Source: an uncultured archaeon (GTDB lineage: Archaea > Aenigmatarchaeota > Aenigmatarchaeia > QMZP01 > QMZT01). From it: DNA of 57,197 nt. The translations under genes were made by a program, and so were the position numbers. This document shows positions 7,751-36,729 of the stretch, piece by piece (the first letter of the stretch is position 1; every line of letters begins with the position of its first letter). The DNA is taken from NCBI GenBank assembly GCA_964613955.1, contig CAZTJN010000002.1, positions 73,526 through 130,722 of the forward strand, read 5' to 3'. The notes beneath the pieces are model-generated. The model was not told where the DNA came from and ran no database searches. It saw only the letters and a program-made list of their open reading frames with translations.

Positions 7751-8411
7751 ATCTTTTCTGAACAAACGTTTTAACATGCGGTTTGAAACCCGACTTCCAG
7801 CCCATGATATGCGCTTTGCCCGATTTTATCGCCTTCATAATGCTTTCCTTATCAGGTCTGGACTTCACGAAGGTTACAGCCATGCCTATTTCCTCCATAA
7901 AGTGCGCGTCCGAACCTGCTATCACAGGCAGATCGTTTTCCTTTGAAAATTTCACGGCATTCCTGTTGAATCTGTCAAACATGGTTCTCGCGTTGAATCC
8001 CTCTACGGCATCCACATAGCTTACTATCTTTCTGGCGGAGACACCCAAACCCCTCCTGAGACTGTCAAAAGGGTGCGGTAAAACAATGAATCCTCCGAGT
8101 CTTTTAACCTCCCTGCATGTTTCTTCCAGATCCATCCATTCAGGAATATCTTTGCTTATGTTGAAAGCTATGATCTCCCCTTCTTTCGTCTTTATCTCCT
8201 CGCCAACAAAAACAACAAGGTTCTTTGCTGTCCTCTTTGCGAGGGCTTCAGTTTCTCTCCCCCCCTTAATGCTTCCGTGATCCACAACTCCTATGATATT
8301 TAGACCGAGTTCCTTTGCTTTCTTTATAATCCATTCCGGCCTCAAGTCGCTATCATTAGAATGATACGTATGAATGTGGAAATCTCCCTTCAGAATATTT
8401 TCGGACGACAT
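7743..8411 (-). CDS. PHP-domain metal-dependent phosphoesterase
   Basis: N-terminal DFHIHTYHSNDS, followed by VVDHGS and GSDAHF motifs characteristic of the PHP fold. Confidence 0.85.
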   Translation of the reverse strand: MSSENILKGDFHIHTYHSNDSDLRPEWIIKKAKELGLNIIGVVDHGSIKGGRETEALAKRTAKNLVVFVGEEIKTKEGEIIAFNISKDIPEWMDLEETCREVKRLGGFIVLPHPFDSLRRGLGVSARKIVSYVDAVEGFNARTMFDRFNRNAVKFSKENDLPVIAGSDAHFMEEIGMAVTFVKSRPDKESIMKAIKSGKAHIMGWKSGFKPHVKTFVQKRFR

Positions 8412-8463
8412 AGATTATTCTTATTAAATAAACTCTAATAAATGTATATAACCAGGTGTTTTT

Positions 8464-13138: not shown

Positions 13139-13490
13139 TGGTAGGGACTAGACTGGGAGGTTAGGCGTCTCCTGTAACCATAAACCGCCTTCATGATGGA
13201 GTCGAAACCCGAGGGCGATATTGAGATGCCAATGGGCCCTTAATCCCAACTGGGAAGCTCTGTCCTTCAGGGTTTTTAGAGGTTGACGGCCTGAAAATCA
13301 ATCAAAGCCGTCTTCCGAAAAATATAATGAACCGGGTCAGGGTCGGAAAGTTTGACACGTGAAGCGTGCCAACCCGAAAGACAGCAGCCCTAAGTTATAT
13401 TAACGACGCTTGAAGGGTAGCGGAGTGGAGGAGGGTTTAAGGATAAACTTATTGGCGGATCAATATCCACCAAGGGTGTGTCCCTACCAC
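13139..13490 (+). ncRNA. Signal recognition particle RNA (7S/SRP RNA)
   Basis: The 5' GGTAGGGAC (13140-13148) pairs with the 3' GTCCCTACC (13480-13488). CTGGGAGGTTAGGCGTCTCCTGTAACCATAAACCGCC and GTCGAAACCCGAGGGCG closely resemble the Pyrococcus-type Alu domain as I recall it (GGGGGGUUCGGCGUCCCCUGUAACCGGAAACCGCC.., GCCGAAGCCCGAGGGGCG). Helix-8-like elements GGTCAGGGTCGGAAAG and ACAGCAGCC are present. A TATA box lies upstream and a T-run downstream. Confidence 0.85.
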
Positions 13491-17592: not shown

Positions 17593-19113
17593 TTATTTTT
17601 TGACCATTTTCATAACGCTTTCCGGGTTTTTGTAATAATCTGAAATTAATCTTCCAACCTGATTTATATCCCTTATCTTCTTCTTCACCAGCCAGAGAAG
17701 TATCTTTTTCTTACCCTCAATGTTTTCCTTGATCTCGTCATCGCTCATCGCAGAATAAAGTTTTATTTCCTTGAGCAGCCTGTGGGGTTTCCCCCATTCT
17801 ACTATCTGGTCTTTTGAAGGAATCCATTTGAAGATAGTGTTCAGTTCAATTTTCATCTCCTCAAGACCGCCGCTGGGTATGAGTTCTGTTACTTCAAGCA
17901 GCCTTCGTATGCCCTTCCTCCTGTCCCTGTGCATGACGGCCACAAGCTGGAGCGAACTTATCAAGGAAACCGGTATGTTTATCGGCGGGTTGACAAGACG
18001 CTTGAATGTTTCTTCGGAGGTATTTGCGTGAAGTGTTGAATAAACCGAATGTCCTGTGTTTATTGCTTCAAACAGGACCTCTGCTTCCTTTGAACGCCTT
18101 ATCTCTCCGACTATCATCCTGTCCGGCCTCATTCTCAGTGCATTGATCATCAACTCGAGCATCGTCACTTCACCCTTGCCTTCGATATTGGGTGGCCTTG
18201 TTGTAAGGGGGACCCAGTGAAGGAAATTCGGCAGCTGGATTTCCCTTGTGTCCTCTATGGAGATAATCCTTTGCGTCGGGGGTATGAACATGCTCAGAAC
18301 GTTGAGAAAGGACGTCTTACCTGAGGCCGTTCCTCCCGTGCAAACAATGTTCATTTCATACTGTATTGCCAGCCAAAGAAACGCAGCGACATCGGCTGAT
18401 AGTGTCCCCATCTCTATAAAATCAGTTATGGTCCATGCCCTGCGAGCGAATTTCCTTATGGTTAAAGTGTTGCCCTCCGAGGATATGGGGAACAAGGTCG
18501 CATTGGCCCGGTCTCCTGTTGCCAGATACGCGTCCATCAAGGGATTTAAATTGGTTATCTGCGTTCCCACCTTCCTTCCAATCTGTGCGGAGTAATTGTA
18601 TATCTTCGCCTCGTCTGGAATCGTGATGTTTGTCTTCAGCCATCCAAATTCCCTGTGGTAAACCCATACGGGCTCCTTTGAGCTGTTTATAACAATCTCC
18701 TCTAGGCCCTGATCCTTCAGCATGAACTCCAACGGACCAAGGCCAAGCGCTTCCTGCACAAGTATGCCTATCAAAATTTTATTTTCCCTTTCGCTGATGC
18801 TGGGAAGCTCTTTCTTCAGAAGCATAGAGGCATTATTCACGAATTTGTCCTTCATCTCCTTAACATCTGTAGGATTTAGTATCTCTTCTGTTTTGAATGC
18901 GAGTTCTGCAACTATTCGCTCTCTTATGGAATCAAGGACTGCATGTGTTGCCCGTTCTATCCTGGGATATGTTATTTTGTATATGGGCACGTATTCATCG
19001 GGGTCATGGATAATATCAACGGTTGCAGGAACATCCTCTGAAATTATTTTATACGTTCTTTCCCTTTGTCTTGCTTTTCTTACCCTTTCTGCCTTTATTT
19101 TTTTCTTTGGCAT
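17593..19113 (-). CDS. Type II/IV secretion-system ATPase (archaeal pilus/archaellum FlaI/EpdL-like)
   Basis: Walker A CTGGTASGKTSFLN, Walker B/Asp box RIISIEDTREI, His box GHSVYSTLHA. A GGAGAGG Shine-Dalgarno box lies upstream. Confidence 0.9.
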   Translation of the reverse strand: MPKKKIKAERVRKARQRERTYKIISEDVPATVDIIHDPDEYVPIYKITYPRIERATHAVLDSIRERIVAELAFKTEEILNPTDVKEMKDKFVNNASMLLKKELPSISERENKILIGILVQEALGLGPLEFMLKDQGLEEIVINSSKEPVWVYHREFGWLKTNITIPDEAKIYNYSAQIGRKVGTQITNLNPLMDAYLATGDRANATLFPISSEGNTLTIRKFARRAWTITDFIEMGTLSADVAAFLWLAIQYEMNIVCTGGTASGKTSFLNVLSMFIPPTQRIISIEDTREIQLPNFLHWVPLTTRPPNIEGKGEVTMLELMINALRMRPDRMIVGEIRRSKEAEVLFEAINTGHSVYSTLHANTSEETFKRLVNPPINIPVSLISSLQLVAVMHRDRRKGIRRLLEVTELIPSGGLEEMKIELNTIFKWIPSKDQIVEWGKPHRLLKEIKLYSAMSDDEIKENIEGKKKILLWLVKKKIRDINQVGRLISDYYKNPESVMKMVKK

Positions 19114-19624
19114 GTTTTCCTCTCCTTTTGCCCCTCTTCACTGCCTTACGCAGCGTTACGATTAGAAGGAGCACTACAATTATAATTAAGATGAGAGCTA
19201 AATAAATTTGATTTTGGAGCAGTGTACCAAGGAACGTGCTTAAATCAGGAATAACAAAGGAATTCGTGGCGAAAAATATATTCAGTCTGCCCGTGTAAAT
19301 CAAAACAAAAACCGCGAAAATCATGATTATTACAATGTTGATTATAAGTGCCTTTTTGTTTCTGGGTTTCCTAGGCTTTTTCACTCCAGCCTTTGGTTTA
19401 AACTTCTTGAGTATCAGAACAGGGTCACCAAAAGGCGGGTAATGGAGGATGGCGAGGTCATGCTCCTCCAGAATTCTGCCCCACTCCTCTATTCTGTCTT
19501 CCTTTACTTTGAATTTCTTTGCAGCCCTTTTCACCTTGACGATCCCGCCCTTTTTTATCATTTCATACAGTTTGTCCACATCTGTTTCAAGGTAACCCCT
19601 GCCCTGCTTTGTTTCTGTCTTCAT
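19049..19624 (-). CDS. Small wHTH-like / single-TM protein with a Lys/Arg-rich tail
   Basis: The N-terminal ~70 aa look like a winged helix (VDKLYEMIKKGGIVKVKRAAKKFKVKEDRIEEWGRILEEHDL). Two hydrophobic segments follow. The tail is KRGKRRGKHAKEKNKGRKGKKSKTKGK. The last 65 nt overlap the ATPase gene in another frame. Start taken as ATG 19624; a TTG at 19636 is also possible. Confidence 0.6.
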   Translation of the reverse strand: MKTETKQGRGYLETDVDKLYEMIKKGGIVKVKRAAKKFKVKEDRIEEWGRILEEHDLAILHYPPFGDPVLILKKFKPKAGVKKPRKPRNKKALIINIVIIMIFAVFVLIYTGRLNIFFATNSFVIPDLSTFLGTLLQNQIYLALILIIIVVLLLIVTLRKAVKRGKRRGKHAKEKNKGRKGKKSKTKGKNV

Positions 19625-19625
19625 T

Positions 19626-20819
19626 TCAACCCTCAAATAATTCTTTCAGACCGTATCTTTCTGCGATAGTCTGATTTATCTTGAACCACTCGGGCAAGCC
19701 CCTCACGCCATGGCCAATATAATCTTGGTCCGAGAAATATAAATAATCCAGAGAGATTTGGCCCTCCTTTATCGGTATGCCTAAACTCTCCAGTTCAGGG
19801 GCGTTTACGAGGGACTCCAGACCATTTGACGAAGCCTCTAAATCCCCTTCGAGCCTGTCAAGATAATCAGGACCCTCGCCTTCAAAATAATAGCCTTCAT
19901 CGAGCTCGAGTTTTATGGGCAAATGCCATACGGATTTCGTTTGGTTATCAATGTACACCTTTTCATAACCTGTTTCTGTTATTGTTTGGTTTATCAAATC
20001 AAGAGAGCTGGCGTTGCCGGTCACGTAGCAGTCTGTATTTCCGCTCAAATCAACATCCTCTTCTGTGATAATCCCCCTGTAGCACCCGAAATCAATTCCG
20101 CTCGTGTTGGAAGCTACAAGTATTTTTGCCGGGTTGCATTCGGATTTTTCAAAGGTGACGTTGCCTTCACACGAACCCCCTGAATTGAAAGAGCCCTTAA
20201 CGATTTTTTTCGCTCTGTAGGTGAAGGGGGAAAATCTTATAACCCTTGTCAGAATGCCGTTCGTTTCTAATGGGAACAGCGGGTCTTCCATGTCGACTAC
20301 GGAGACAAGCACTTCCTCCTTCACGCCATTTTTTTCTACCCTTGCCATGCCCATATCATCTGCTACATGCACGCTGAGATTGGAACTTACCCTTACAGTG
20401 GAGTAATCGTTGCCGGCTATATGAAGGCCCGAATAGTTCAAATCAACATTGAAATTCGTCTTGACATTCCTTATCCTTTGTGTCCAGTTGCCGAGTGTGT
20501 TGTTAACCATGAGTATTGCTTCTTCACCAGATAGCGTTCCATTTTCCATCAGTTCCTTCAGACTTTCAACAGAGTTGTTGAGTGCCGTTCCATTCATAAC
20601 AATTCTATCCCCTGCCGCTATTAATGCCCTCTTGCAGGACGTTACGAGGGCCTTACTGAAATCAGTCTCGATGCTTTTTTCAAGCTGGTGGACCTGGTCA
20701 GAAACTATCCTTTCGTAAATATCTGACCCTATTGTCTGCGAGCCTATGTAAACGGTTACGAAAAGTATTATGGGTATGGCTATGAGTATTGCAGTCGCAG
20801 AATAAAACTGACCCCTCAT
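19626..20819 (-). CDS. Large pilin-like secreted protein with a class III (prepilin-type) signal peptide
   Basis: From ATG 20819 the protein begins MRGQFYSATAILIAIPIILFV, a short basic segment, then G, then a hydrophobic helix. It is about 400 aa with many N-x-S/T sequons. TTTAATTAAAT on the minus strand lies 25-35 nt upstream of the ATG, which suggests a leaderless transcript. Confidence 0.6.
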   Translation of the reverse strand: MRGQFYSATAILIAIPIILFVTVYIGSQTIGSDIYERIVSDQVHQLEKSIETDFSKALVTSCKRALIAAGDRIVMNGTALNNSVESLKELMENGTLSGEEAILMVNNTLGNWTQRIRNVKTNFNVDLNYSGLHIAGNDYSTVRVSSNLSVHVADDMGMARVEKNGVKEEVLVSVVDMEDPLFPLETNGILTRVIRFSPFTYRAKKIVKGSFNSGGSCEGNVTFEKSECNPAKILVASNTSGIDFGCYRGIITEEDVDLSGNTDCYVTGNASSLDLINQTITETGYEKVYIDNQTKSVWHLPIKLELDEGYYFEGEGPDYLDRLEGDLEASSNGLESLVNAPELESLGIPIKEGQISLDYLYFSDQDYIGHGVRGLPEWFKINQTIAERYGLKELFEG

Positions 20820-21130
20820 ATAAATAATATGGAGGGATTTAATTAAATTGGAATTATCCCCCTGGAAGTTCAACAAATTCTTCGATGGGCATAAGATTTA
20901 TTTTTTTACCCTTGTACTTAACAATTATTCTATCCTCTTACGCTTATCCCCTTCACATCGGTATTGCCTTCTTGCAAGTAGCTTTCCATATCTTTCAATG
21001 TCACGTCGTAAGATGTCAGAGAAGTCTTTTTGGTTTTTATTCAAGGCATTTCTATCCTAGTGGAATAATCGCTTTTTATTTTCAAATAGGAACCTGAGAT
21101 TTAAATTAAAACAGAATACAATATTCTATT

Positions 21131-23811: not shown

Positions 23812-25599
23812 CTACTTCATTTCTTCTTTCTTGAATTCTTTTGTTTTGCCTTTCTTGGTTGCGACACTCGAAAGCAGCCCCCACTCCTCTTCCGGGGTTT
23901 CGAGTAAATCCTTCAGGGGTTCGAATCGGTGGTCTCTCATTATTTGTTCCTGTCTCCAGTAATCGCCTGCAGTCATCCTCACACCAAAAAATTCCGGAGG
24001 GAGCTTGTCAGGCGGGGTATCCTTTTCCAAGAATTTGGCCTGCAGCTTAAGGGCATCAACAGCCTGTTTGAATGGGTCGTCTCCTCCCCCCCTCTCAAAG
24101 AGCAGATAAACATCATGACCCTGCTTTCCCATGCCCGTTGTCCTCAGAAAATACATTAAATTGTAAAGAACCATGTCACCATATTCTATTGGGTAATGTG
24201 CATGCAAAGGGTTAGGTGTGTTTGAGTGAACGGAAAGAATGTATTTTCCATAGTCAGGAGCTATTTTTTTCAGGTCTTTGATCATGATGAGAGGATCAAT
24301 CCCATGACCTGCCACGTGCTCCCAGTCCATTGTAATGAAAACCCTGTCCGTTTTCAGCGTCTTTCTTATGGTTTTTATTGCAGCATATATCTGCTTCGGA
24401 TGCCAAAGCAAATACAGGCCGGCATATTTCGGGTCTCTTGCATCAGGCATCTCAATTGTGAACTTTAGATTCTTTGCTATCTTTATCAGATCGGGTCTGC
24501 CAGCCAGCTCATTTTTTATGAACTTGTCATTTAGCCACTTCAACGCCTCCTGAATATGCCCTTCCAGGAATTTCGCAGCAACGGCCGCATAATAAAATTC
24601 CTTGAACTGTCTGTCGTTGGTTTCTTCCGCCCGTTTCCACGACTTATCCAGCCATTCGTCATCGCTGTAGTCCAATTTGTACTTCCCCAGAACATCCGAA
24701 TAAACCTTGCACATCTCAACCCATATGGGATCCTTTGTGTAGAAAAGATAGTGGGCCATTATGTTGTAACCGTCCGTCAGCTTTCCATATGTATCGACTT
24801 TCCATTTCCTGTCATCGTACTTCTTCTGCATCATCTTCTTTCTGGCTGCTACGCCCATGTATTTTTTGAACAAGTTGGCATACAAATCTCCTGCCTCCTT
24901 TCTAACTTCTTCCCTTATCTTGTCCTCAATTCTTTCCCTTTCCCTTTCCGGTATGTTCTTTCTTGGTCCCAGCGGGGTCATAATGACAGGATAATCCTTT
25001 GTGTACTCTTCCCATTTCCTTTCCTGGAGTTTGCCTGCCATGAGGTCGGATTCTATTCGCGCTCCTCCCTCGGCTTCTCTCAGTTCCTTTTCATCAACTA
25101 TGAAACTGGGGTATTGCCTTTCGAAGTCCCACATGTGCTTTATGAACCATTCCCTGAGCTTAGCGTTTTCGTACAATATCTCGGAAACGAACCTCCCGAG
25201 GTGGTCGCACATAACGATTTCGAGCTTCGAAGTCGTGTATGTTATCATCTCCAGCCAGAAATGAAGACATGCGTGAAACAAAACGTATTTGCAGCCGGCA
25301 TAAACAGCGGAACGTATCGATTTCTGTATATGGTCATGCGCATCTCTCCAGTCCGAACGCTCGGGGATGGCCATGGGGATCGTAAGAGAACCATGGAAAA
25401 GCAGATCAACCCCCTGTTTTTCTGCCAGGTGTCTTATCTCTTCGCCTTCTGTCTGTGATATTTCGTGGGGTGCATCCCCGGATATCTCTATAACATCTGT
25501 CCCTCTGGTCAAACCGTACCCTACCTTTTTCAGAGTAGTAGCCAGTTCTTCTGCTCTTGCTATGTAATACAGACCTGTTGTAACGCCTACCTTTAACAT
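23812..25599 (-). CDS. Xylose-isomerase/endonuclease-IV-like TIM-barrel protein with a ~250-aa charged insertion
   Basis: 595 aa. Strand-like segments carry candidate metal ligands: KVGVTT, DVIEIS, DLLFHGS, KYVLFHA, [insert ~res 120-375, Trp/Lys/Glu-rich], KFTIEMPD, VFITMDWEHVAGHG, ILSVHSN, VYLLFERGG. The fold call is by eye. Confidence 0.55.
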   Translation of the reverse strand: MLKVGVTTGLYYIARAEELATTLKKVGYGLTRGTDVIEISGDAPHEISQTEGEEIRHLAEKQGVDLLFHGSLTIPMAIPERSDWRDAHDHIQKSIRSAVYAGCKYVLFHACLHFWLEMITYTTSKLEIVMCDHLGRFVSEILYENAKLREWFIKHMWDFERQYPSFIVDEKELREAEGGARIESDLMAGKLQERKWEEYTKDYPVIMTPLGPRKNIPERERERIEDKIREEVRKEAGDLYANLFKKYMGVAARKKMMQKKYDDRKWKVDTYGKLTDGYNIMAHYLFYTKDPIWVEMCKVYSDVLGKYKLDYSDDEWLDKSWKRAEETNDRQFKEFYYAAVAAKFLEGHIQEALKWLNDKFIKNELAGRPDLIKIAKNLKFTIEMPDARDPKYAGLYLLWHPKQIYAAIKTIRKTLKTDRVFITMDWEHVAGHGIDPLIMIKDLKKIAPDYGKYILSVHSNTPNPLHAHYPIEYGDMVLYNLMYFLRTTGMGKQGHDVYLLFERGGGDDPFKQAVDALKLQAKFLEKDTPPDKLPPEFFGVRMTAGDYWRQEQIMRDHRFEPLKDLLETPEEEWGLLSSVATKKGKTKEFKKEEMK

Positions 25600-25608
25600 A
25601 AAAATCTA

Positions 25609-27252
25609 TCATATGCTTTGTCCGCTTAATCTAAAACACGTTTGCTTTATCAGGTTGACTATCTCGGCAACCTGCGGACCCATGTAATCGCCGTAACACT
25701 TTGAAATCCTCTTCTGTATGTTTATTTCATAAGGCCCTGGTTTCACGAAAATGCCTACAGTAGGTCTTATGACCTTTCTCCTGAACGTACGCACACCCTT
25801 CTTTAAAGATGCGAGTTTTTTGGATTTTATCTTCTTCTTCTCTATCTCTTCGAACTCCTCTTCAATTTTTTCCTTTATCCCCCTCTCGACTTCTTTAACG
25901 CCTATAAGCTCGTTTATTTCTCTTTCAAAGGCCATCTTTTTGGCTTCAAGTTCGAGCATGAAAACCAGAAGGGCGTTCTGGGATATGAGGAAGGGATGAA
26001 AATGAAAGTACTGGTCCTCAACGACCATGGGCCCTGTCGACCCCCTCTTATACGCAACATTGTAATCCATATCCACAAATATGTAGTACAGATACCTCGG
26101 GTCGTATACAGGGCCGGGATGAACTGTGAGTATCTCTTTCTTTTTTGCAGTGTAGCCGGGCATTGTCCATTCCTTCAGGAATCTTCGTATGTCCTTTTCG
26201 GTGAATTTAACACCGTACTTTTTTTCTATTTTTGCCTGCTGCTCCTTTGCCCAGTCGTCGTAAGGGTCTATTTCATACCCCTGTCCACGCAGTATGACCG
26301 GCTTTCCCATTTCCTCGGGTTTTATGGGTTTTATGAACCACAGTTTCGCCCAGATTTCTCCTTCAGGGGTCATGGCCATCTTCAGGGGGTTTGTCAGGTC
26401 ATCTGCAACGCGACCGGGTATCTCGGAAACCTCCTTTATTCTCTTGAACCTTTGCAGATACGGCTTCAGCCAGTCCCTGTACTGGTCAACGGACCTCTTT
26501 CTCGATTCGAGAAGGTTCTTTATTCTTGCATATCTCTCCTTCACATCCGGGAAGAACAGCCTTTTCCATTCGAGAAACAATTCATTCTTCGTCTTCAGAA
26601 CCACGGCTTCAGCCTGAGAGACTTTCAATTCCTTTCTTATTTTTTCAGTATCCCTCCATTCGCTCTTCATCCTTATGAAGTCTGAGATTATGGTTGGCCA
26701 TCTCTTCGCCATGGTAATCATCGAATAACCTTCGCCCGTGTACGCATCCACTCTGTCGACGAACAGCGAACGAAGGATGTGCTCGTCCTTTTTCCCCATC
26801 TTGAAGTAATCAAGGATCTCCCTGTACTTCCTTTCATCATGCTTCAGAAGCTCGTAGTCCGCGACGGCCTGCGCCGCCGAAGCGAGTCCGGATTTTATCT
26901 GGCCTTCCAGTTTTTCCTTCTGTGCAAGCACCGGGGCGAAGGCCGGCGGAGGGTTGGGTGTAAGAAGTATGTATTCATCGGCCTTTTTTACATTCCAGTG
27001 CCACTTCGCAACGCGGTACATCATTACGTTGTATATGATTTCTGCCTGTCCTTCCAGCGTGACCGGATTTATGCTCGTCATCTGGTCTATGCTAGCTGGG
27101 GAAATGACAACCTCACCCAGGATAGCCTTTTTTCTCGCCTTCTCCATCAATATATCAGCAATCATCGGGCCTTCCTGAAGTTTTCGGAGTTCCCTCTCCC
27201 TTTCCCTGCTTATTTGGGCTTCGCTTTTCACTTTCTTTCTGAAAAATACCAT
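25609..27252 (-). CDS. Hypothetical 547-aa protein (charged, coiled-coil segment near the C-terminus, no recognisable catalytic motif)
   Basis: Long uninterrupted ORF ending 9 nt upstream of the TIM-barrel gene. I saw no P-loop, signal peptide or TM segment. A Glu/Lys-rich segment is KEKIEEEFEEIEKKKIKSKK. Confidence 0.8.
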   Translation of the reverse strand: MVFFRKKVKSEAQISRERERELRKLQEGPMIADILMEKARKKAILGEVVISPASIDQMTSINPVTLEGQAEIIYNVMMYRVAKWHWNVKKADEYILLTPNPPPAFAPVLAQKEKLEGQIKSGLASAAQAVADYELLKHDERKYREILDYFKMGKKDEHILRSLFVDRVDAYTGEGYSMITMAKRWPTIISDFIRMKSEWRDTEKIRKELKVSQAEAVVLKTKNELFLEWKRLFFPDVKERYARIKNLLESRKRSVDQYRDWLKPYLQRFKRIKEVSEIPGRVADDLTNPLKMAMTPEGEIWAKLWFIKPIKPEEMGKPVILRGQGYEIDPYDDWAKEQQAKIEKKYGVKFTEKDIRRFLKEWTMPGYTAKKKEILTVHPGPVYDPRYLYYIFVDMDYNVAYKRGSTGPMVVEDQYFHFHPFLISQNALLVFMLELEAKKMAFEREINELIGVKEVERGIKEKIEEEFEEIEKKKIKSKKLASLKKGVRTFRRKVIRPTVGIFVKPGPYEINIQKRISKCYGDYMGPQVAEIVNLIKQTCFRLSGQSI

Positions 27253-27301
27253 TTCTCTCCCCGCATTTAACTATTGTCGAAGCTAAAATAAAAAACTAAA
27301 T

Positions 27302-27499
27302 CTAACTGAAAAGAAGAAAGCCACCTATGACAAGCAAGACGAGACCGACCAGAACACCGATCACATCCATGTGGAAACCCATCGTCTCCACATTCTGTGT
27401 ATCCGAAATACCGGGGAGGAACAAAACCAAAAAACCACCAACGATTATGAGCAAGACCGCGAGAACTTTTACTCCAAGCCACCATAGCATACAAATCAT
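27302..27499 (-). CDS. Small two-TM membrane protein with an internal repeat
   Basis: 65 aa. TM1 LLIIVGGFLVLF and TM2 LLVIGGFLLF are repeats of each other. It lies 49 nt upstream of the 547-aa gene on the same strand. Confidence 0.5.
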   Translation of the reverse strand: MICMLWWLGVKVLAVLLIIVGGFLVLFLPGISDTQNVETMGFHMDVIGVLVGLVLLVIGGFLLFS

Positions 27500-27516
27500 G
27501 CCTGCCCAAGTTAACT

Positions 27517-27547
27517 AATTTATAATTTACAAGTGAAAATATAAATA
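27517..27547. promoter_or_regulatory. Back-to-back divergent promoter elements
   Basis: AATTTATAAT (27517-27526) is positioned for the + strand genes (GAGGTGA Shine-Dalgarno at 27558-27564, ATG at 27568). AAATATAAATA (27537-27547) read on the minus strand is positioned for the gene starting at 27499. Confidence 0.35.
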
Positions 27548-27567
27548 AGGAAAACCAGAGGTGAAAC

Positions 27568-28083
27568 ATGCCGGTATGGGCAAGAACAAAGATCGTAATG
27601 CAAGAGGACTGCTACAGGGAGAAACCTGAAAGGATAACCATAAAATACGTTGGCCCGAATCCTACGAAACTCTACTACAAGGTCTACGAGCTTCTCAAAT
27701 CCATTATCAGGGCGTCCGACTCTGACATACAAGAGGAGAACTACAGCTGGGGCAAGGCGGCAGACAAGGAAAAGTTCAAGGTAAGGTGGTATGTTCACAA
27801 AGATTTGGACCCGTACACATACCTCTACCTGAGGTTCGACGTTTCCGGTTCTGGGAACGAGAAGTCGGGAAACGCAAAGATAAAGATAAAACCCGTGATG
27901 AGGACAGAATATCCGCAGGATACGTTGTGGCAGAGGTCGCTCTTCTACGAGATGATGCGGACATTCTGGCACAGGATGTTCTATCACAGAAAGAGAGAGG
28001 AATACGCAGAGGAGTGCAGAAATCTAATCACGTTATTCCAGAGAGAAATAAACGAGTTCTTCAAGCAGCTGAGAGAGGAATAA
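27568..28083 (+). CDS. Hypothetical protein, paralog 1 of an unrecognised family
   Basis: 171 aa. It shares with the next gene [ED]DCY..(I/L)xYxGP(N/D)P near the N-terminus, a WYVH/YVHW segment, and an aromatic-rich C-terminal helix (LWQRSLFYEMMRTFWHRMFY). A strong GAGGTGA Shine-Dalgarno box is present. Confidence 0.75.
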   Translation: MPVWARTKIVMQEDCYREKPERITIKYVGPNPTKLYYKVYELLKSIIRASDSDIQEENYSWGKAADKEKFKVRWYVHKDLDPYTYLYLRFDVSGSGNEKSGNAKIKIKPVMRTEYPQDTLWQRSLFYEMMRTFWHRMFYHRKREEYAEECRNLITLFQREINEFFKQLREE

Positions 28084-28100
28084 AATAATGGTTGGTCGCA

Positions 28101-28592
28101 ATGGCAAAGGTAGAGATAGAAGACGATTGCTACGCACCTAGGAAGAGCGAATGGCTTGAATATAGCGGACCGGACCCGTTCGCCTTCGTTAGGGAGCACA
28201 GAAACATTCTCCGTCCGGTTTTTGAAGTAGGAACTTCGAGCACGGGCGAACCTAGATGGATGTGGGACTGGACAGGAGACCCCATACAGCTTTACGTGCA
28301 CTGGATTGCAAAGAAGAAATACAGCAGGTTCACAACCTTTCTCATCAGCATCAGGACGGTCGGGTTCATATCGAAGGCCCGAAAAGAAGGGACATTCAGG
28401 ATGGAGATCGAGCCTATTCTGAGACATAAATTTGAAGGGAACAGGCTGGTCGTCTGGTTATGGTGGTTGTACTGGTATCTTTTCTACAACCGCGTGAGGC
28501 AGTCCATGCTGGTCCGCTGCAAAGGGATGGCTGACAAGTTTATAGCAGTTATAAGGGACATGTACAATTTAGGCTCTGTAAAAGAAGAGTGA
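28101..28592 (+). CDS. Hypothetical protein, paralog 2 of the same family
   Basis: MAKVEIEDDCY..LEYSGPDP..LYVHWIAKKK..RLVVWLWWLYWYLFYNRV. Start taken as ATG 28101. The ORF track's start at 28092 is a TTG. Confidence 0.75.
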   Translation: MAKVEIEDDCYAPRKSEWLEYSGPDPFAFVREHRNILRPVFEVGTSSTGEPRWMWDWTGDPIQLYVHWIAKKKYSRFTTFLISIRTVGFISKARKEGTFRMEIEPILRHKFEGNRLVVWLWWLYWYLFYNRVRQSMLVRCKGMADKFIAVIRDMYNLGSVKEE

Positions 28593-30408: not shown

Positions 30409-31077
30409 CTAAGATTTTTTTATGCCTTTCAAGAACACTGCCACCAGGGCTGCCATGAGAATGACCAGAACAAGCACCAAGGCAAAGAACAGCGGATCTT
30501 TCTCATACACTTTTTTCAGGCTGCCCGGCACCGGTGCCGCAGCAGGTCCACTTTGATTGTTACGAGGGATTTCCCCACCTTCTTCCCTCCCGCCTTCCAC
30601 CGCCTTCCCCTCACCCGTCTCTTCGCTTTCGTAAACTTCAGGCTGGCCTGGGAGGTCTTCGGGGTTTATTTCACTTGGTGGAAGATAGCCGCTTTCAAGC
30701 GGGCAGTTGGTCCCGTTTGCTCTTGAAAAACTATATACCTTTGATTCGGCATGCCTGAATATATTGCTCTCTCCCAAAAGGTAATCGTTCACACCGAAGA
30801 GGACCAGCGGAACGGCATCTGGAAGATTGTAGGCCTCCCTGTATGCATCAAAGATATTTCTGTTTTCCTGGCTGGCGTCCACATTGTATTTTATTGCCGT
30901 AAGAGTTTTTGCATATTCTTTAAGGAGACCGTCCATGAAGCTGTCCGTTATGCCGCATTCATCACAAAAATTACCTGTGAAATATACGAGACAGACAACG
31001 TTTTCTTTCGTGACATCCTGCGCAGCAACTACCGGAAACAGCAAAAGAATAACCAACAAGATGAACAATTTTCTCAT
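30409..31077 (-). CDS. Secreted, C-terminally membrane-anchored thioredoxin-like protein (CxxC)
   Basis: Signal-like N-terminus (MRKLFILLVILLLFPVVAAQ). VCLVYFTGNFCDECG contains a CDEC motif in a thioredoxin-like context. An acidic/Gly/Pro linker leads to a C-terminal TM segment. It lies 12 nt downstream of the adhesin gene. Confidence 0.6.
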   Translation of the reverse strand: MRKLFILLVILLLFPVVAAQDVTKENVVCLVYFTGNFCDECGITDSFMDGLLKEYAKTLTAIKYNVDASQENRNIFDAYREAYNLPDAVPLVLFGVNDYLLGESNIFRHAESKVYSFSRANGTNCPLESGYLPPSEINPEDLPGQPEVYESEETGEGKAVEGGREEGGEIPRNNQSGPAAAPVPGSLKKVYEKDPLFFALVLVLVILMAALVAVFLKGIKKS

Positions 31078-31089
31078 ACGATCTCCTCC

Positions 31090-34000
31090 TCACTTCCAAA
31101 TCCTTACCTCCATGACAGCAGGGCCCCACATAGAGGGAATCTGGGATATGAAATCCGACTGGAATTTGACCTCTTCTGTCACTTCCAGGTCAATAGGGTT
31201 GCTGTACGATCCGTCTCCGTTTCCGGTGGGCCCTGTTTCATTATGCTCCATATTTACAACGGCAGGGTTCTGGTCAGCCATGAAGTTTATTTTGTCCATC
31301 AGCTTCATAAAGCCGTTATCAATCGAATCATTTTCCGGATCAAACACATCGCTGGGGTCAACACCCACCTCCACAGTCACCGAACTTTCAGGGATGTTGT
31401 CGCCATCGGAATCATAATAAATTGTTGGGCTTGATCCTTTCGCCTTGGGGAAAACGTCACTGTATTCCGTGAGGCCAACGCCCGTGATGCCCAACGTGTA
31501 AATGACCCTGTCATCTGGGGATGCTCCCAAGCCGTCTTGAAGGGAAGGGTGAAGCCCTGTTCCTATCCTGAATGAATTGTTGCCTCCTGGTTCGAGCAGG
31601 TTTGGCGGTATCTGTACGATGTACGGATCGCCCAGCCCCTCGTATTTGTCTGAATAATTCCCTAGCCAGTATACGCGTGTCCAGTTTTGGTTGGGGGTAT
31701 TTGAAGAATTAACCCATAATCTGTCTGTCCAGTAATATGATGAATACGAAGTTATTTTCGAATCCAAGACCTTTGTTACGACTTCTGTGTTGCCCGGAAT
31801 TGTAAACCACCCCTCTTTCGTTCCTGTTTCATTGTCTGTTATCATGGCTTCGCCGGTCGAGTCCCTCAGTCTCGGGGATTCGAAATTAAGCGTCAGCTCT
31901 CCGTATTCCATTGTTCTGACGACAGGGGTGTAATTGAACGATATGAATGAATCCGGATAAAGAATGTTGTTCAGCGAGACATTCCCACTAACATTGAAAA
32001 TCTGGGCCTGGTAGGTTGCGTTGGCTATGTCATTCGCTATATCCCTGTATATTTTCTTCAAACTTTCTGCGTTCGAACTGTTGTAATATTTGTTGCAGTC
32101 AGGTATCCAATCATTCGCTGAACAGTTCCAACAGGCTATTCTTTTAAGCGTTTCGTTATCCGCTCCGCTTCCAAATGCAACCGAATATACCTGTATGCTG
32201 TGGTTTTCCCTTGCTTCACACGCTTTTTCAATTGACTGATCACTTGCATCTATCCCAGAGGGGCAGTAGTATCCAGGAACGCACCTGTTTGCATATCCAT
32301 CGCTCATGACCAGTACAGCCTCGTATCTCTTCATCGTGTAATTCAGCTCCAGACCGAATTTCGCATTTTCGTTGTCGTTATTACGGAGTTTCACGGCTAT
32401 GACGTTGTCCCCCTTCCTGAAATACGATCTATCAACTGGTATTCTCTCCCTTATCTTAACGTCATCCACGTAGAACCTTTCAGAATCCAGGCTTGATCTG
32501 GAACCGAACCTTATTGTGAAGTTATCAATCATGCTGTACCCTGATAGATCTATTTCTTCATGGTTGTACTCGTTGTAATTATGGTTTGACGAATATCTTC
32601 TCAACCTTTTCCATCCCCCGTCCCATATCCAGACATCTGAGTATTCACTGGTTTCTACCGGATTGTCGCCCATCCTCCACCAGTACGAAAGTGTGAGGTT
32701 CGATTTTCCGGACAAGTTTATGGATTTTTCCGCGTAACCATATGAATCCATGTCCCTGAAGACCAAGACGTCGGTTCCGCTGTGCGCGGGATAACCGGGG
32801 TAATCTGCCATGAGAAACACTTCCTTGTCATCCGATGGCGTTCCGTCAGCAATCCAGTAGCCGGGGGAACGGTTTATCTCGTCATAGTAAAGTCTGTTCG
32901 CACCTCCTGTGTAGTAACCTTCGAAATCATCGTAGAATACGACGCCTCCTTTATTCCAGTATTCTGCCTGGTGTTCTCTTGTATCGTTGTTTATCAGGTG
33001 ACCATTAAGGTACACTTCAGCGTTGTCATCCGAGAGAACGTGCAGTTCCCCGGAATCTATCAGGCTGGGATCTTCTATGTCAAAATGTTTTCTGAAATAA
33101 TAATTCCCTCCGTTGTTCCCTATATCCGTCTGTACGTTCGGAGGATATGGGTTGTTTTCGAAACCTAGTATTGCCTGTCCCTCGCTCCATTCCGTATCGC
33201 TGTAGTTATGGGATGTCCAGTGTGTCCCGTTAATGTCGTTCGGAGGTTCAGCCGAAGGATAGCTTGTATTGTAAAGCCATAAGGAATTCGAATGAATAAC
33301 GGTTTTAACGATTTTGGATGTGTCCAACAGATTCACTGCACTCGCTATACCACATGATATGCAGGTGGCCGAATCATCATAGTAACCATTTATATGAGAA
33401 TAGAGGGAATTGCTGTCGTTGCTCATTGGGTGGACACCGACAACCCTTGTGGTGTAATTTACGAGACCGACCCTGTTTCCTGTGTAATTGAGAATGGTAG
33501 AAACGAATTCCTTGTCCACGTCCTTGGCCACATTTATCCTGTTCCTGTGACAGATGGGTGTGGTGTCGCATATTCCTCCTGTGCATTCTGATTCGACATC
33601 GCATGTTGACATGCTTCCCGAAACATCTGTTATCAGAACAGAGTCGCTCGTCCCCTCGCCGCTTATGAACGCGAACGTTTCCGTTCCGAATCTTAATGGT
33701 ATGGTGGCGTTGCTCAAAATTTTAGTCAGGTTCTCCTTCCCGCCGAATATTTCTGAGATGTTCTCATCAGGGATATACAGGTTTATTTCTCCCGTTGTGT
33801 TGCTCCTCATCATTTCTTCCGACCCTATTATCAGATAAACAGGAATGCCCTGATTGTTCAGGCTGAGATTGTTTTTGTAATGAAGCCTGATGCTTATGTT
33901 TTTAAGGGTTCCTGGCACGTAAAAAGAGGAATAAAGATTTATCAGGCCCTTTACTCCTGGGAACCAGTATCTCTTCTCGGATGTTCCCCCGCCGTACACG

Positions 34001-34866
34001 TAGCCTTTTCCCGTCAATTCCGACGTCATGTATGTAATTTTCAGATATCCGCCGCCTATGTAATTGTTTTTGCCTTCAGTGAAATTTATGTTAACAGTGT
34101 TGTTTCCCCCTCCGAAATATGAACAATATGAAGGATTCACAGTCTTAGAACAAACAACCCACTTGTCTGAAGAAAAATTGGCGGCAGTTTTATTGTAGAA
34201 ACCGGCGTTTTGCCCGTTCACCCACAATGTGAAATTTCCGCCTGCATTCATTTCAAGGTAAACGTTCGTAACATTCGCATCCTCAGGCAGCGTCGTGAAC
34301 CTTGTTATGTTGCCATCCCCGACATACCCCCCGAAGTAAACGAAGTTCGTTCCTGTTTTCCTTGTTTTTGTCATGTAAACCTTTGCCACGTAGCCGTTGA
34401 CGGGCTTCGTTTTTTCATAGCCCGAAACTATTGTATTGAGTCTTGTTACGTAATCAGCATTAACAGAACCATTCCTGTATACGCTTTCATTGTTGATCAG
34501 AATCTCGAATCCGTATACGGTGTTGTTGAGGAGAAGGGAAATGACACCCCTGGTAAGGTTTTCCGCGTACGATTTATTCCCCGCTGCCCAGAACGAGCCT
34601 ACGACATCAAGAATCGTCCTGTTCATGTCCTCGTCGTTCAGAACCCCCTGACTGAGATAATTCTGGACCTCCGGAAGGAATGAAACGGATTCCATTTTGG
34701 TTTTTTCGAAGAGCGTCACAGTATCCTTTCCTGCATAATAAAATCTCTGGTAGCGGAGATCAGGAGAGGAATACGTGTGCGACAATCCCACCAAAAATGT
34801 CGACACGAGCAGCAGGAGACTTATCGCAACCAGCGCATCCATAGACAGAAGGAAGCCGTTTCTCAT
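31090..34866 (-). CDS. Giant pilin-like secreted adhesin with a von Willebrand A domain interrupted by ~330 aa of beta-sandwich modules
   Basis: 1258 aa. The N-terminus MRNGFLLSMDALVAISLLLLV is prepilin-like. The MIDAS motif DVSGS is at res ~414-418, the vWA continues to ~510, and the vWA strand AVLVMSDGYAN sits at ~850-860. Between them lie lectin/jelly-roll-like segments (YFRKHFDI..GELHVLSDDNAEVYLNG; FYDDFEG..NLTLSYWWRM..FYVDDVKI). Sequons and paired Cys residues are numerous. Confidence 0.85.
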   Translation of the reverse strand: MRNGFLLSMDALVAISLLLLVSTFLVGLSHTYSSPDLRYQRFYYAGKDTVTLFEKTKMESVSFLPEVQNYLSQGVLNDEDMNRTILDVVGSFWAAGNKSYAENLTRGVISLLLNNTVYGFEILINNESVYRNGSVNADYVTRLNTIVSGYEKTKPVNGYVAKVYMTKTRKTGTNFVYFGGYVGDGNITRFTTLPEDANVTNVYLEMNAGGNFTLWVNGQNAGFYNKTAANFSSDKWVVCSKTVNPSYCSYFGGGNNTVNINFTEGKNNYIGGGYLKITYMTSELTGKGYVYGGGTSEKRYWFPGVKGLINLYSSFYVPGTLKNISIRLHYKNNLSLNNQGIPVYLIIGSEEMMRSNTTGEINLYIPDENISEIFGGKENLTKILSNATIPLRFGTETFAFISGEGTSDSVLITDVSGSMSTCDVESECTGGICDTTPICHRNRINVAKDVDKEFVSTILNYTGNRVGLVNYTTRVVGVHPMSNDSNSLYSHINGYYDDSATCISCGIASAVNLLDTSKIVKTVIHSNSLWLYNTSYPSAEPPNDINGTHWTSHNYSDTEWSEGQAILGFENNPYPPNVQTDIGNNGGNYYFRKHFDIEDPSLIDSGELHVLSDDNAEVYLNGHLINNDTREHQAEYWNKGGVVFYDDFEGYYTGGANRLYYDEINRSPGYWIADGTPSDDKEVFLMADYPGYPAHSGTDVLVFRDMDSYGYAEKSINLSGKSNLTLSYWWRMGDNPVETSEYSDVWIWDGGWKRLRRYSSNHNYNEYNHEEIDLSGYSMIDNFTIRFGSRSSLDSERFYVDDVKIRERIPVDRSYFRKGDNVIAVKLRNNDNENAKFGLELNYTMKRYEAVLVMSDGYANRCVPGYYCPSGIDASDQSIEKACEARENHSIQVYSVAFGSGADNETLKRIACWNCSANDWIPDCNKYYNSSNAESLKKIYRDIANDIANATYQAQIFNVSGNVSLNNILYPDSFISFNYTPVVRTMEYGELTLNFESPRLRDSTGEAMITDNETGTKEGWFTIPGNTEVVTKVLDSKITSYSSYYWTDRLWVNSSNTPNQNWTRVYWLGNYSDKYEGLGDPYIVQIPPNLLEPGGNNSFRIGTGLHPSLQDGLGASPDDRVIYTLGITGVGLTEYSDVFPKAKGSSPTIYYDSDGDNIPESSVTVEVGVDPSDVFDPENDSIDNGFMKLMDKINFMADQNPAVVNMEHNETGPTGNGDGSYSNPIDLEVTEEVKFQSDFISQIPSMWGPAVMEVRIWK

Positions 34867-34929: not shown

Positions 34930-35550
34930 ATGGATTTCAGGAAGTTCATAATGTCCAAATTCGGGAAGGATATATTTTCCATAAAAGAAGATGACATAGT
35001 AAAGGAAAGGGTAAAGGTTGAAAAGGAAATCGAAAAAATTTCAGATGATTTGAAGGGCATACAGGAGAAAATTCAGAAGTTGATGCTCGAGGCCAAAGGC
35101 CAGCCGAACACATTGAAAATGCTCAATGTCCAGAAGATAAAAGCCCTGCGCTTGGAATCCCGGACGAAACAGATGGAGGCTTCTCACTATCTTGCCCAAA
35201 TGCAGTTGCTGCTGCTCGTAGAAGCCATGAAGGAGAGGGAAAAAGAAGAGAAAATATCGAAAATAACCGAGGATATCCTCAACTCAGACGTGGACAAACT
35301 TAACAGGGTTCTTATGGACACGGATGTTAAAGAGGCTCTGAGGGAAGGGAGACTTGACCTCGTAAAGGAAAAACTCGAAAGGGTCTTCGGCAAGGAAGAA
35401 ATGCTTGTTGACGGGGAATCCCAAGAACTCATAGCAGCCATAAATGATCTAGAGAAAGTAGATCAGGAAACCGCTCTGAAGATGGCAGGAGAAAAGGCAA
35501 AAGAACTCTCAGAAGAGCCCATTAAAAAGGAAGAGAAAGAAGAGGAGTGA
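34930..35550 (+). CDS. ESCRT-III (Snf7/CdvB)-like coiled-coil protein
   Basis: 206 aa and all-helical by composition. The N-terminal half is basic and the tail acidic (EEPIKKEEKEEE). A Snf7-like heptad core is present (IQKLMLEAKGQPNTLKMLNVQKIKALRLESRTKQMEA). The call relies strongly on the adjacent Vps4-like gene. Confidence 0.5.
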   Translation: MDFRKFIMSKFGKDIFSIKEDDIVKERVKVEKEIEKISDDLKGIQEKIQKLMLEAKGQPNTLKMLNVQKIKALRLESRTKQMEASHYLAQMQLLLLVEAMKEREKEEKISKITEDILNSDVDKLNRVLMDTDVKEALREGRLDLVKEKLERVFGKEEMLVDGESQELIAAINDLEKVDQETALKMAGEKAKELSEEPIKKEEKEEE

Positions 35551-35595: not shown

Positions 35596-36729
35596 GTGGT
35601 TTCTATGGGAGAACTCAGGAACAACCTTCTAAGACAGCAGCTCCAGCATGAGATAGATATTGCCAAGAAGCTGGAATCAAAGGGCAAATCTGACGAGGCT
35701 GTTGCCCATTACAAGCGGGCAGCGTCCATATACAGAAGACTTGCCTACGTCGCTCCCCGGGAACATGCTGAATCCTTCTTCAATTCTGCCTCACAATACG
35801 AGACGATGTCAAATGCCCTGAAATCCGCAACCTCTGAGAAAAGGGCAGAATCACCTGAGCTAATAGAAAGCATGATAATATCCGAGAGGCCCACAACTAC
35901 ATGGGAAGACATAGGAGGCCTGTCAGAGGTCAAGAAGGTGATCAAGGAAGCGATAATACTCCCATTCATAGGCAACAAACCAGCCTTTGTTGAGTCTCCC
36001 AGAACCATTCTCCTCTACGGCCCGCCAGGAACAGGAAAAACACTTCTGGCGAAGGCGGCCAGCAACACTCTGAATGCAGCATTCTTTGAGGCCCGGACAT
36101 CAAGTCTGCTTTCAAAATACTTTGGAGAATCCTCAAAGATAATAAGCATGCTTTTCGAGAAGGCCCGCAAGAGCCAGCCCTCCCTGATATTCATGGACGA
36201 GTTTGACTCGATAATGATAAGCAGGGATTCAGGCATCCAGGAGTCCACAAGAAGGGTTGTTGGCCAGCTTCTTACGGAAATAGAAGGCTTCAACACGAGA
36301 TCCGAAGATAAGATACTGCTGATAGCCGCGACCAACAAACCGTGGGACCTTGACGATGCAATGGTTTCTCGGTTTCAGAGAAAGGTCTACGTTCCCCTTC
36401 CTGACAAAGCCTCCCGGAAGCGAATATTCGAAATACACCTCAAGGGCTGCGTTCTTCATGGCATAACATTTGAAAAACTCGCTGAGATGAGCGAAGGCTA
36501 TTCGGGAAGGGATATAGCTAACGTGTGCAGGGAAGCGGTAATGTTCATGGTCCGCGAACAAAACCCCAAGCTTCAGGAGCTAACACCCGCACAGATAGAA
36601 AATTATGCAATGAACTACAGATCGCTTACCAATGAGGATTTTGAAGAGGCCTTCGGGAAGATAAAGTCTTCCGTGAACCCCGAGACGATAAAGAGATATG
36701 AGGAATGGGGCAGGGAACTTGGGATGTAG
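35596..36729 (+). CDS. vps4: Vps4/CdvC-like AAA+ ATPase with an N-terminal MIT domain
   Basis: MIT-like three-helix N-terminus (IDIAKKLESKGKSDEAVAHYKRAASIYRRL). One AAA module is present (LLYGPPGTGKTLLAKA, IFMDEFD, ATNKPWDLDDAMVSRF). A Vps4-type C-terminal helix is present (IKRYEEWGRELG). The track start at 35596 is a GTG. An ATG at 35605 is equally plausible. Confidence 0.85.
   Translation: MVSMGELRNNLLRQQLQHEIDIAKKLESKGKSDEAVAHYKRAASIYRRLAYVAPREHAESFFNSASQYETMSNALKSATSEKRAESPELIESMIISERPTTTWEDIGGLSEVKKVIKEAIILPFIGNKPAFVESPRTILLYGPPGTGKTLLAKAASNTLNAAFFEARTSSLLSKYFGESSKIISMLFEKARKSQPSLIFMDEFDSIMISRDSGIQESTRRVVGQLLTEIEGFNTRSEDKILLIAATNKPWDLDDAMVSRFQRKVYVPLPDKASRKRIFEIHLKGCVLHGITFEKLAEMSEGYSGRDIANVCREAVMFMVREQNPKLQELTPAQIENYAMNYRSLTNEDFEEAFGKIKSSVNPETIKRYEEWGRELGM

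Follow-up and report, generated by a model that had tools for sequence, protein, structure and literature searches.

What do five adjacent archaeal genes do when a reading of their sequences maps them to no described system, and do they act together at all? The question is raised by a block of genes at positions 23812-28592 of a 57,197-nucleotide stretch of genomic DNA (hereafter the window) from an uncultured member of the Aenigmatarchaeota, a DPANN lineage (assembly GCA_964613955.1, contig CAZTJN010000002.1, positions 73,526 to 130,722). An earlier annotation made from the letters and open reading frames (ORFs), here called the sequence-only reading, had described two operons diverging from an AT-rich spacer of 68 bp and had argued that the five genes form one functional unit; the ORF list reproduced its genes, gaps and spacer exactly. 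On the minus strand run C (27302-27499; 65 amino acids (aa) as the ORF reads), the first gene of its operon, then B (25609-27252; 547 aa) and last A (23812-25599; 595 aa), with gaps of 49 nt between C and B and of 9 nt between B and A. On the plus strand, D (27568-28083; 171 aa) is followed after 8 nt by E (28092-28592), which is 166 aa long from a TTG start, or 163 aa if an ATG three codons inside the ORF serves as the start. The spacer (27500-27567) has a GC content of 31%, against approximately 40-48% in the surrounding 500-bp windows.

The block proved to recur throughout the phylum. We scanned one genome per GTDB species for B and found relatives in 132 species-level genomes; 80 loci were kept (our locus numbers carry the prefix L), and the counts use loci with enough flank. 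A lay downstream of B in 60-61 of 66 loci, D and E lay divergently upstream of B in 57-59 of 64, and all five genes were present in 48-50 of 57 (~85%), in the order E<D<spacer>C>B>A. An iterated hidden Markov model detected C in 72 loci of the set L001-L083 (83 loci); among the 69 GTDB loci whose flank sufficed, 63 have it upstream of B. The named homologues of B, D and A came almost all from Aenigmatarchaeota metagenome-assembled genomes (MAGs), with a few bins assigned to Nano- or Micrarchaeota and one evidently mis-binned as bacterial. In L087 and L088, where B is 24-26% identical, the order E<D<spacer>C>B was kept, followed by A in L088, and in L087 A sat three genes beyond D/E. In L046 and L047, A had been relocated to the far side of E, still attached to the block. 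Gene junctions in the relatives were 1-39 nt or overlapping. The flanking genes varied between clades: the ligase and TrmB genes found here occurred only in the window's clade, and the neighbours elsewhere included a protein with nucleotidyltransferase (NTase) and HEPN domains, a cytidylate kinase, an ordinary PF01261 protein, Trm1 and KaiC. Identity across loci was 44-88% for D and mostly 43-83% for A, comparable to the 51-80% of ABCE1, which is among the most conserved archaeal proteins, suggesting strong constraint.

Taken together, the order kept in most loci and at 24-26% identity of B, the changing flanks, the short or overlapping junctions and the TATA-like boxes conserved in the window's clade (see below) bear out the claim of one unit, which we regard as very likely. 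The proteins were not found to belong to known families with unrelated roles, nor was their neighbourhood scattered. DPANN archaea are abundant, reduced and mostly obligate symbionts, and much of their biology lies in genes labelled as hypothetical; retention of the block through deep divergence in genomes of ~1 Mb points to a core function.

Further genes travel with the module in part of the loci. A multi-transmembrane protein of ~110-120 aa (cluster c5, no Pfam match) follows E directly in 24 loci, in some of them with an overlap (for example L003, 6343-6669, and L050, 5215-5574, both on the minus strand), and in the rearranged L046 and L047 it has stayed with the block. We consider it a possible sixth member of the module, absent from this window. 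The NTase-HEPN protein (NTP_transf_2/Pol-beta, ~405-540 aa), also absent from the window, is a close or direct neighbour of A in 27 loci (for example L049, 8000-9217, plus strand; L003, 12292-13551, plus; L087, 1-1406, minus). An NTP_transf_2 gene stands beside A in all three loci with a relocated A (L046, L047 and L087), an adjacency that may reflect a functional link between A and the nucleotidyltransferase. A low-complexity protein rich in Q, N and P was observed beside the module in L086 (1906-2415, minus), L087 (3667-4461, plus) and L088 (4239-4586, minus); the C-terminal ends of these proteins are short helices that resemble one another, such as DRIMDRLDDIENRLRSIERRV, IKQLKVQQELILEKLNLIEERTRRL and IEQLDVIRAQNEMILRRIKNLERMM, and no family was found for them. 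L082 (CP070801.1, 872903-887727) contains an apparent second copy of the module with c5, E, D, C and a truncated B; runs of N occur inside this B and its neighbours in a genome labelled as a complete chromosome, and the copy could have arisen from faulty scaffolding rather than being a paralogous cluster.

Within the spacer, two TATA-like boxes face opposite ways, each ~22-27 nt before a start codon. Box 1, at 27515-27528 (plus-strand sequence CTAATTTATAATTT), would serve C-B-A, and box 2, at 27535-27547 (plus-strand sequence GAAAATATAAATA), would serve D-E. In the window's clade (L001-L020 and L053), the two sequences and the distance between them are conserved, and AT-rich twin boxes recur in other clades. 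Judged by their position, the boxes may act as divergent promoters, and the distances to the start codons would fit leaderless or near-leaderless divergent transcripts. A scan for bacterial promoters and terminators, a method unsuited to archaea, did no better on the window than on shuffled sequence.

Of the five products, C alone reaches a hydropathy of transmembrane grade. Its two hydrophobic helices, VLAVLLIIVGGFLVLF and VLVGLVLLVIGGFLLF, are repeats of each other, and hydropathy and sequence thus agree with the earlier description of a tiny protein with two repeated membrane helices. The family alignment puts the likely start at the Met at 27490, three codons later than assumed, which would give 62 aa. 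The family consensus MFGxxGxxxGxxLxxxGxFLVFFFPxxxxHQ...GIxxGxIxxIxGxxLxF describes two-helix transmembrane hairpins, and in distant lineages C occurs as a tandem version with four transmembrane helices, as in L087 and L088, or as two tandem copies. No match to C was found in Pfam, NCBIfam, PADLOC or the PDB sequences.

A could be assigned to a superfamily, and its sequence places it securely in PF01261 (xylose isomerase-like TIM barrel, AP_endonuc_2). The full-length protein scored 35.6 bits against a gathering score of 31.1 (E = 1.1e-8); this match and the invariant ligand pattern described below agree with the metal-dependent barrel of xylose-isomerase/endonuclease-IV type recognised in the sequence-only reading. 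When residues 127-335 were deleted, the two partial matches to PF01261 fused into a continuous one over profile positions 8-222 of 249 (37.6 bits, E = 2.5e-9), which shows that the barrel is split by an insertion. A Trp/Lys/Glu-rich insertion of ~250 aa had been proposed; the composition stood (40% charged residues, with 7 Trp, 25 Lys and 25 Glu), and the length is nearer ~210 aa. In the family alignment, the insertion has two conserved helical-looking blocks, and the Lys/Glu-rich linker between them is variable, its length differing greatly from lineage to lineage; a conserved tail of ~90 aa follows the barrel. By motif correspondence with endonuclease IV of E. coli, the equivalent of H109 lies on the strand before the insertion and that of E145 on the strand after it; these are strands 4 and 5, in agreement with the sequence-only reading. 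We found 301 homologues of A; the 120 listed were all of 475-635 aa, mostly 565-635 aa, the named ones among them came from Aenigmatarchaeota-type MAGs, and most of those listed had a precomputed PF01261 match. No NCBIfam model matched A, either full-length or with the insertion deleted, and the A-family profile found no TIM-barrel chain among the PDB sequences at E < 1. The sole PDB match of this profile was a stretch of the insertion (residues ~133-202; 24995-25203 in the window) resembling the N-terminal domain of the large subunit of human primase (PriL; E = 0.025-0.09), with the motif DHxxxFIxxL...LRxWF; a Pfam search with the insertion alone did not back this likeness, which is probably due to chance.

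The residues expected to form the active site of A are strongly conserved. Among 64 aligned members of the family, which include the four most distant, H69, H109, E383, D425, E427, H428, H458 and E502 were invariant, and H468 and H466 were retained in 61 and 58 members, respectively. E383, D425, H458 and E502 are the core Glu/Asp/His/Glu metal ligands of the PF01261 superfamily. The metal ligands of E. coli endonuclease IV (Nfo; the sequence used was identical to that of 1QTW) we take to be H69, H109, E145, D179, H182, H216, D229, H231 and E261. By motif correspondence, H69, H109, E383, D425, H428, H458 and E502 of A are the counterparts of H69, H109, E145, D179, H182, H216 and E261 of Nfo; H468 is that of H231, and H466 takes the place of D229, a substitution. 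The second and third metal sites of endonuclease IV are built by the extra His residues (H69, H109, H428 and H468 in A), which one-metal isomerases do not need, and to our knowledge DNA repair nucleases are the sole characterised enzymes with a three-metal ligand set in a PF01261-type fold. As judged by these motifs, the active-site residues of A most resemble those of the three-metal nuclease branch, and A is not demonstrably an endonuclease IV.

B, described earlier as a highly charged protein with no recognisable motif, answered to that description: it has an isoelectric point (pI) of 9.5, 33% charged residues, no transmembrane segment and no match in Pfam, NCBIfam, PADLOC or PDB by sequence and profile searches. 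When 25 homologues were scanned singly, no recurrent Pfam family and no AAA, SMC or ABC match appeared. A HMMER profile of B gave 244 matches at E <= 1e-3 among 1.84 billion representative proteins, and the best 150 of these all look like members of the B family; in PHROGs, a single weak coiled-coil match was obtained (E = 0.0041), to a family of unknown function. The AlphaFold2 (AF2) model of B, of moderate confidence (predicted local distance difference test score, pLDDT, 70.6; predicted template modelling score, pTM, 0.59), contains two very long helices, at residues 103-155 (53 residues) and 213-276 (64 residues), and a small sheet of strands 87-97, 297-309 and 389-424. Foldseek with this model against the PDB returned nothing significant (best E = 0.36, template modelling (TM) score 0.16); the non-significant neighbours were coiled-coil arms of SMC and similar proteins, and helix-grip folds also appeared. 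Conservation is highest at residues ~120-245, and 56 columns are invariant among 25 diverse sequences. The invariant polar residues include D139, R141, R161, D166, R167, D169, R184, W185, D191, E215, K222 and N223, and the block therefore looks like a binding or catalytic surface more than a plain coiled coil. Alignment with hhalign of B with D/E, and of A with B, showed no shared domain.

D and E are paralogues, as the sequence-only reading had noted of two tandem proteins of a family it could not name: BLASTP aligned them over their full length (E = 2e-13, 21% identity), and no family match was obtained. Pfam matched none of the 29 family members scanned and showed no SRPBCC family even at E <= 0.5; neither D nor E had a match in NCBIfam or PADLOC, and the D profile gave no SRPBCC match among the PDB sequences. 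Like B, both are basic (pI 9.2-9.5 for the three, with ~30% charged residues), and D, like A and B, has no transmembrane segment. D carries the signature EYPQDTxWQRSLFYEMxRTFWHRxFYHxKR and has 181 homologues, the 120 listed being 53-86% identical. Its AF2 model (pLDDT 82, pTM 0.73) runs beta1-beta2-alpha1, then a four-stranded meander and two C-terminal aromatic/basic helices; in E, according to a hydrophobicity scan, a Trp-rich hydrophobic stretch, LVVWLWWLYWYLFY (residues ~118-131), replaces the amphipathic helix of D. Foldseek of D against the PDB gave mainly matches to SRPBCC/START, CoxG, PR-10 and PYL proteins at E = 5.6e-4 to 4e-2, with TM scores of 0.13-0.35 and root-mean-square deviations of 7-17 Å, and against the viral structures of BFVD it gave uncharacterised proteins only, at low TM scores. 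As the TM score was at most 0.35, we call D a generic helix-grip-like alpha+beta fold rather than claim it for that family.

What might such a unit do? A co-oriented block with a metallo-enzyme, one or two tiny membrane proteins and three orphan soluble proteins leads us to infer a membrane-associated complex, and the mechanism that we put forward tentatively, as a possible one, is a co-regulated complex of this kind around a three-metal phosphoesterase. Back-to-back promoters in the 68-bp spacer would drive C-B-A one way and D-E the other. A would be the catalytic subunit, with hydrolysis of a phosphoester or phosphodiester most likely, rather than sugar isomerisation. Its insertion and the long-helix protein B would probably make up an elongated scaffold or an arm that handles the substrate. 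C would anchor the assembly to the membrane on the cytoplasmic side with the help, in many lineages, of the second small membrane protein, and D/E may be a heterodimeric accessory that docks on a polyanionic substrate or on the membrane. The substrate of A may be a nucleic acid or a phospholipid head group. The three-metal ligand set, which among characterised enzymes of this fold is known only from DNA repair nucleases, would by analogy point to nucleic acid; a lipid is suggested by features that point to the membrane, namely the membrane proteins, the weak helix-grip resemblance of D/E and their aromatic/basic helices. According to published genome analyses, Aenigmarchaeota lack de novo synthesis of nucleotides and of membrane lipids, both of which must come from a host (PMC8407114), and therefore either substrate would make biological sense. 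More doubtful is the larger claim that the module is a phylum-defining, probably essential membrane machine in which new folds and families around a three-metal phosphodiesterase would process host nucleic acids or phospholipids, as a dedicated scavenging or remodelling apparatus of an obligate symbiont; were host nucleic acids or lipids handled in this way, the module would bear on the central question of how such cells manage without making their own nucleotides and lipids (PMC8407114).

Several observations weigh against such a complex. A, B and D have neither transmembrane segments nor signal sequences, and the membrane association is suggested by C, the extra membrane gene and composition, namely the Trp-rich hydrophobic stretch of E and the high pI of B, D and E. 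The link of A to endonuclease IV is one of motif correspondence only: no NCBIfam nfo match and no PDB TIM-barrel match at E < 1 were obtained, and hhalign of the insert-deleted A with 1QTW was not significant (E = 0.19) and paired only H69 with H69 and H109 with H109. The conserved polar block of B suggests that this protein, instead of serving as a scaffold, may bind a ligand or have an enzymatic activity of its own. The block is also incomplete in some loci, with B alone in L021, L069 and L084 and B-A only in L022, L027, L067 and L086; one of the source MAGs with B-A only encodes a D homologue on another contig (P0233), and D/E may be a later addition or, in those genomes, may be encoded elsewhere.

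Each of four other explanations conflicts with at least one tested feature. The one that survives best, which we consider unlikely, is that A is the lineage's Nfo-type apurinic/apyrimidinic endonuclease of base-excision repair, with B as a possible DNA-binding partner and C, D and E as syntenic bystanders. It would account for the endonuclease-IV-type ligand pattern of A and would suit the basic character of B (pI 9.5), the label "endonuclease IV" that one A homologue bears at JGI, the DNA ligase ~1 kb from the module in this window and the HhH-GPD glycosylase or NurA near the module in two distant loci. In contrast, neither NCBIfam nor the PDB, even by profile, connected A with any endonuclease IV, hhalign with 1QTW stayed below significance, and the ligase/TrmB flank is confined to the window's clade. 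In many Aenigmatarchaeota loci, moreover, a second, ordinary-sized PF01261 protein (~290 aa; cluster c10, for example L044, 12808-13680, minus, and L046, 59-637, plus) is encoded 2-3 genes from A, which indicates that the lineage has a separate small member of the family. Finally, C, D and E remain with A and B through deep divergence and rearrangement.

We give a rather small chance to the view that the module is a structural or membrane-remodelling apparatus, cytoskeletal or serving division or host contact, in which A is regulatory or vestigial, B polymerises or bridges, and C and D/E bind the membrane. The 53- and 64-residue helices of the B model, whose sole, non-significant Foldseek neighbours include coiled-coil arms, and the two small membrane proteins of the module are consistent with it, as are an ESCRT-III-like gene and a Vps4 gene 6 kb away in the window and a Snf7-like protein encoded before the B-only gene of L084. 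The Snf7 assignment is, however, not significant (Pfam E = 0.62; no ESCRT-III match in the PDB), and in no other locus does a Vps4 or ESCRT-III-like gene lie within 7 kb of the module. The conserved block of B is polar and not heptad-like, and the invariant catalytic residues of A argue for a working enzyme.

Equally to be weighed against the proposed phosphoesterase complex is a role of A as a sugar(-phosphate) isomerase, epimerase or dehydratase, with the module as a small metabolic or envelope glycan pathway; we rate the chance of this as slim. Such enzymes dominate PF01261, several JGI records name A homologues "sugar phosphate isomerase/epimerase", and A has the core E-D-H-E ligands. The extra His residues H69, H109, H428 and H468, invariant or nearly so, nevertheless correspond by motif to those of the second and third metal sites of endonuclease IV, for which one-metal isomerases have no need; moreover, none of the isomerase or epimerase models in NCBIfam matched A even with the insertion deleted, and the partner proteins give no enzyme-family signal. 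The idea that there is no functional unit, and that each gene acts alone in a synteny inherited in small, slowly rearranging genomes, would suit the restriction of the loci to one phylum and the presence of ABCE1, with no obvious functional link, within a few kb of the module in many clades, but it is very improbable given that the flanks beyond the five genes differ among clades, that three independent rearrangements (L046, L047 and L087) keep the members together, that junctions are short or overlapping around a common promoter region and that every member is under strong constraint.

Two further candidates were discarded. An anti-phage defence system was rejected, as no entry of PADLOC-DB matched any of the five proteins at E <= 0.1. 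An origin from a mobile element was likewise counted out: tblastn found neither B in the INPHARED phages nor D in the PLSDB plasmids, B had no match in IMG/VR, the weak match of B noted above was the single one in PHROGs, and the GC content of the module resembles that of its flanks.

The surroundings in the window had been described as housekeeping throughout. This holds for the ATP-dependent DNA ligase, the TrmB-family regulator and ABCE1, identified by Pfam as the flanks of the module, but not for a 1258-aa surface protein and an ESCRT-III-like/Vps4 pair nearby. The 1258-aa protein (31090-34866, minus strand) has an N-terminal hydrophobic segment, a vWA domain and many N-x-S/T sequons and is probably a large surface protein; it adjoins a 222-aa protein (30409-31077, minus) with an N-terminal signal-like segment and a C-terminal transmembrane segment, and both genes remain beside ABCE1 and the module in the window's close relatives. 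The pair, ~6 kb from the module, consists of a 206-aa coiled-coil protein (34930-35550, plus), which is ESCRT-III/Snf7-like by eye only and has a weak DUF5965 match in Pfam, and, directly 3' of it, a Vps4-type AAA ATPase (35596-36729, plus) with AAA and Vps4_C domains and an MIT-like N-terminus; together they look CdvB/CdvC-like. In the very distant lineage of L084, a B homologue (8001-9698, plus; E = 2.5e-24), with no A, D or E nearby, is preceded by a helical protein of 188 aa (6815-7381, plus), which aligned end to end with Snf7 at E = 0.62 and had no ESCRT-III match in the PDB, and by a multi-transmembrane protein of 157 aa (7419-7892, plus). On the other side of the module in the window, a T2SSE/PilB-type secretion ATPase (17593-19113, minus) is followed by ORFs at 19049-19636 and 19626-20876 (both minus; 195 and 416 aa), for which Pfam gave nothing; the genes may belong to a pilus or archaellum-like locus, and homologues (clusters c13 and c14) also flank the module in close relatives. 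ARAGORN found no tRNA gene in the window, and the sole Rfam match was an archaeal signal recognition particle RNA at 13141-13487 (plus).

How does the module compare with known systems? With endonuclease IV (Nfo/Apn1), A shares the PF01261 fold, with a score above the cut-off, and, by motif correspondence, the ligand positions: seven of the nine do not vary among the aligned members, and two vary little. H69 and H109 even bear the same numbers in the E. coli enzyme. A differs in the ~210-aa charged insertion between strands 4 and 5, the conserved C-terminal tail of ~90 aa and the His at the position of D229; no endonuclease IV of solved structure resembles it significantly by sequence or profile, nor does the NCBIfam nfo model match. 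It also lies in an operon with orphan and membrane proteins, and we know of no Nfo in such an operon. Sugar-phosphate isomerases and epimerases (COG1082-type, the label used at JGI) belong to the same Pfam family and have the same core Glu-Asp-His-Glu ligands, whereas A has the additional invariant His residues typical of three-metal nucleases, is twice their usual size and matches no specific isomerase or epimerase model; the automatic annotation of A as a sugar phosphate isomerase/epimerase could therefore mislead metabolic reconstructions. B differs from SMC/Rad50-type coiled-coil ATPases in having no AAA, SMC or ABC match in Pfam, its Foldseek matches to SMC arms lying at E of at least 0.46 and TM scores of at most 0.15, and from ESCRT-III/CdvA-type proteins in having no Snf7-family match in Pfam and no ESCRT-III structural match in Foldseek. 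D and E resemble the SRPBCC/Bet v 1/START helix-grip domains in their size of ~170 aa and in an antiparallel beta-meander followed by a long C-terminal helix, but D has two N-terminal strands before its first helix and a different order of strands and helices, and TM scores of at most 0.35 with no Pfam signal are too little for a claim of membership or of lipid binding.

Only A could thus be filed, in PF01261; B, C, D and E had no significant match in Pfam, NCBIfam, PADLOC or the PDB sequences, nor did Foldseek, the structural check proposed earlier, bring more than the weak, low-TM matches of D (PDB and BFVD) and nothing significant for B (PDB). The earlier statement that the combination maps to no described system thereby stands. 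Beyond the fold of A, we found no resemblance to a described system, and we rate the module as outside every described kind; it is new in the sense that it is uncharacterised, which is not a claim of unprecedented function. The module offers an experimental handle in the recognisable catalytic site of A together with four partner families that have no known relatives. No description of this gene cluster was found in the literature that could be searched. A related entry in that literature is the lineage-specific Module 128 of Aenigmarchaeota, whose protein families are "completely lacking functional predictions" (Castelle et al. 2021, PMC8204110): compared by description only, B, C, D and E fit it, while the cluster, its architecture and the split barrel are not described in the main-text passages searched (PMC8204110). 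Set beside these systems, the module probably marks an undescribed cellular machine of the Aenigmatarchaeota.

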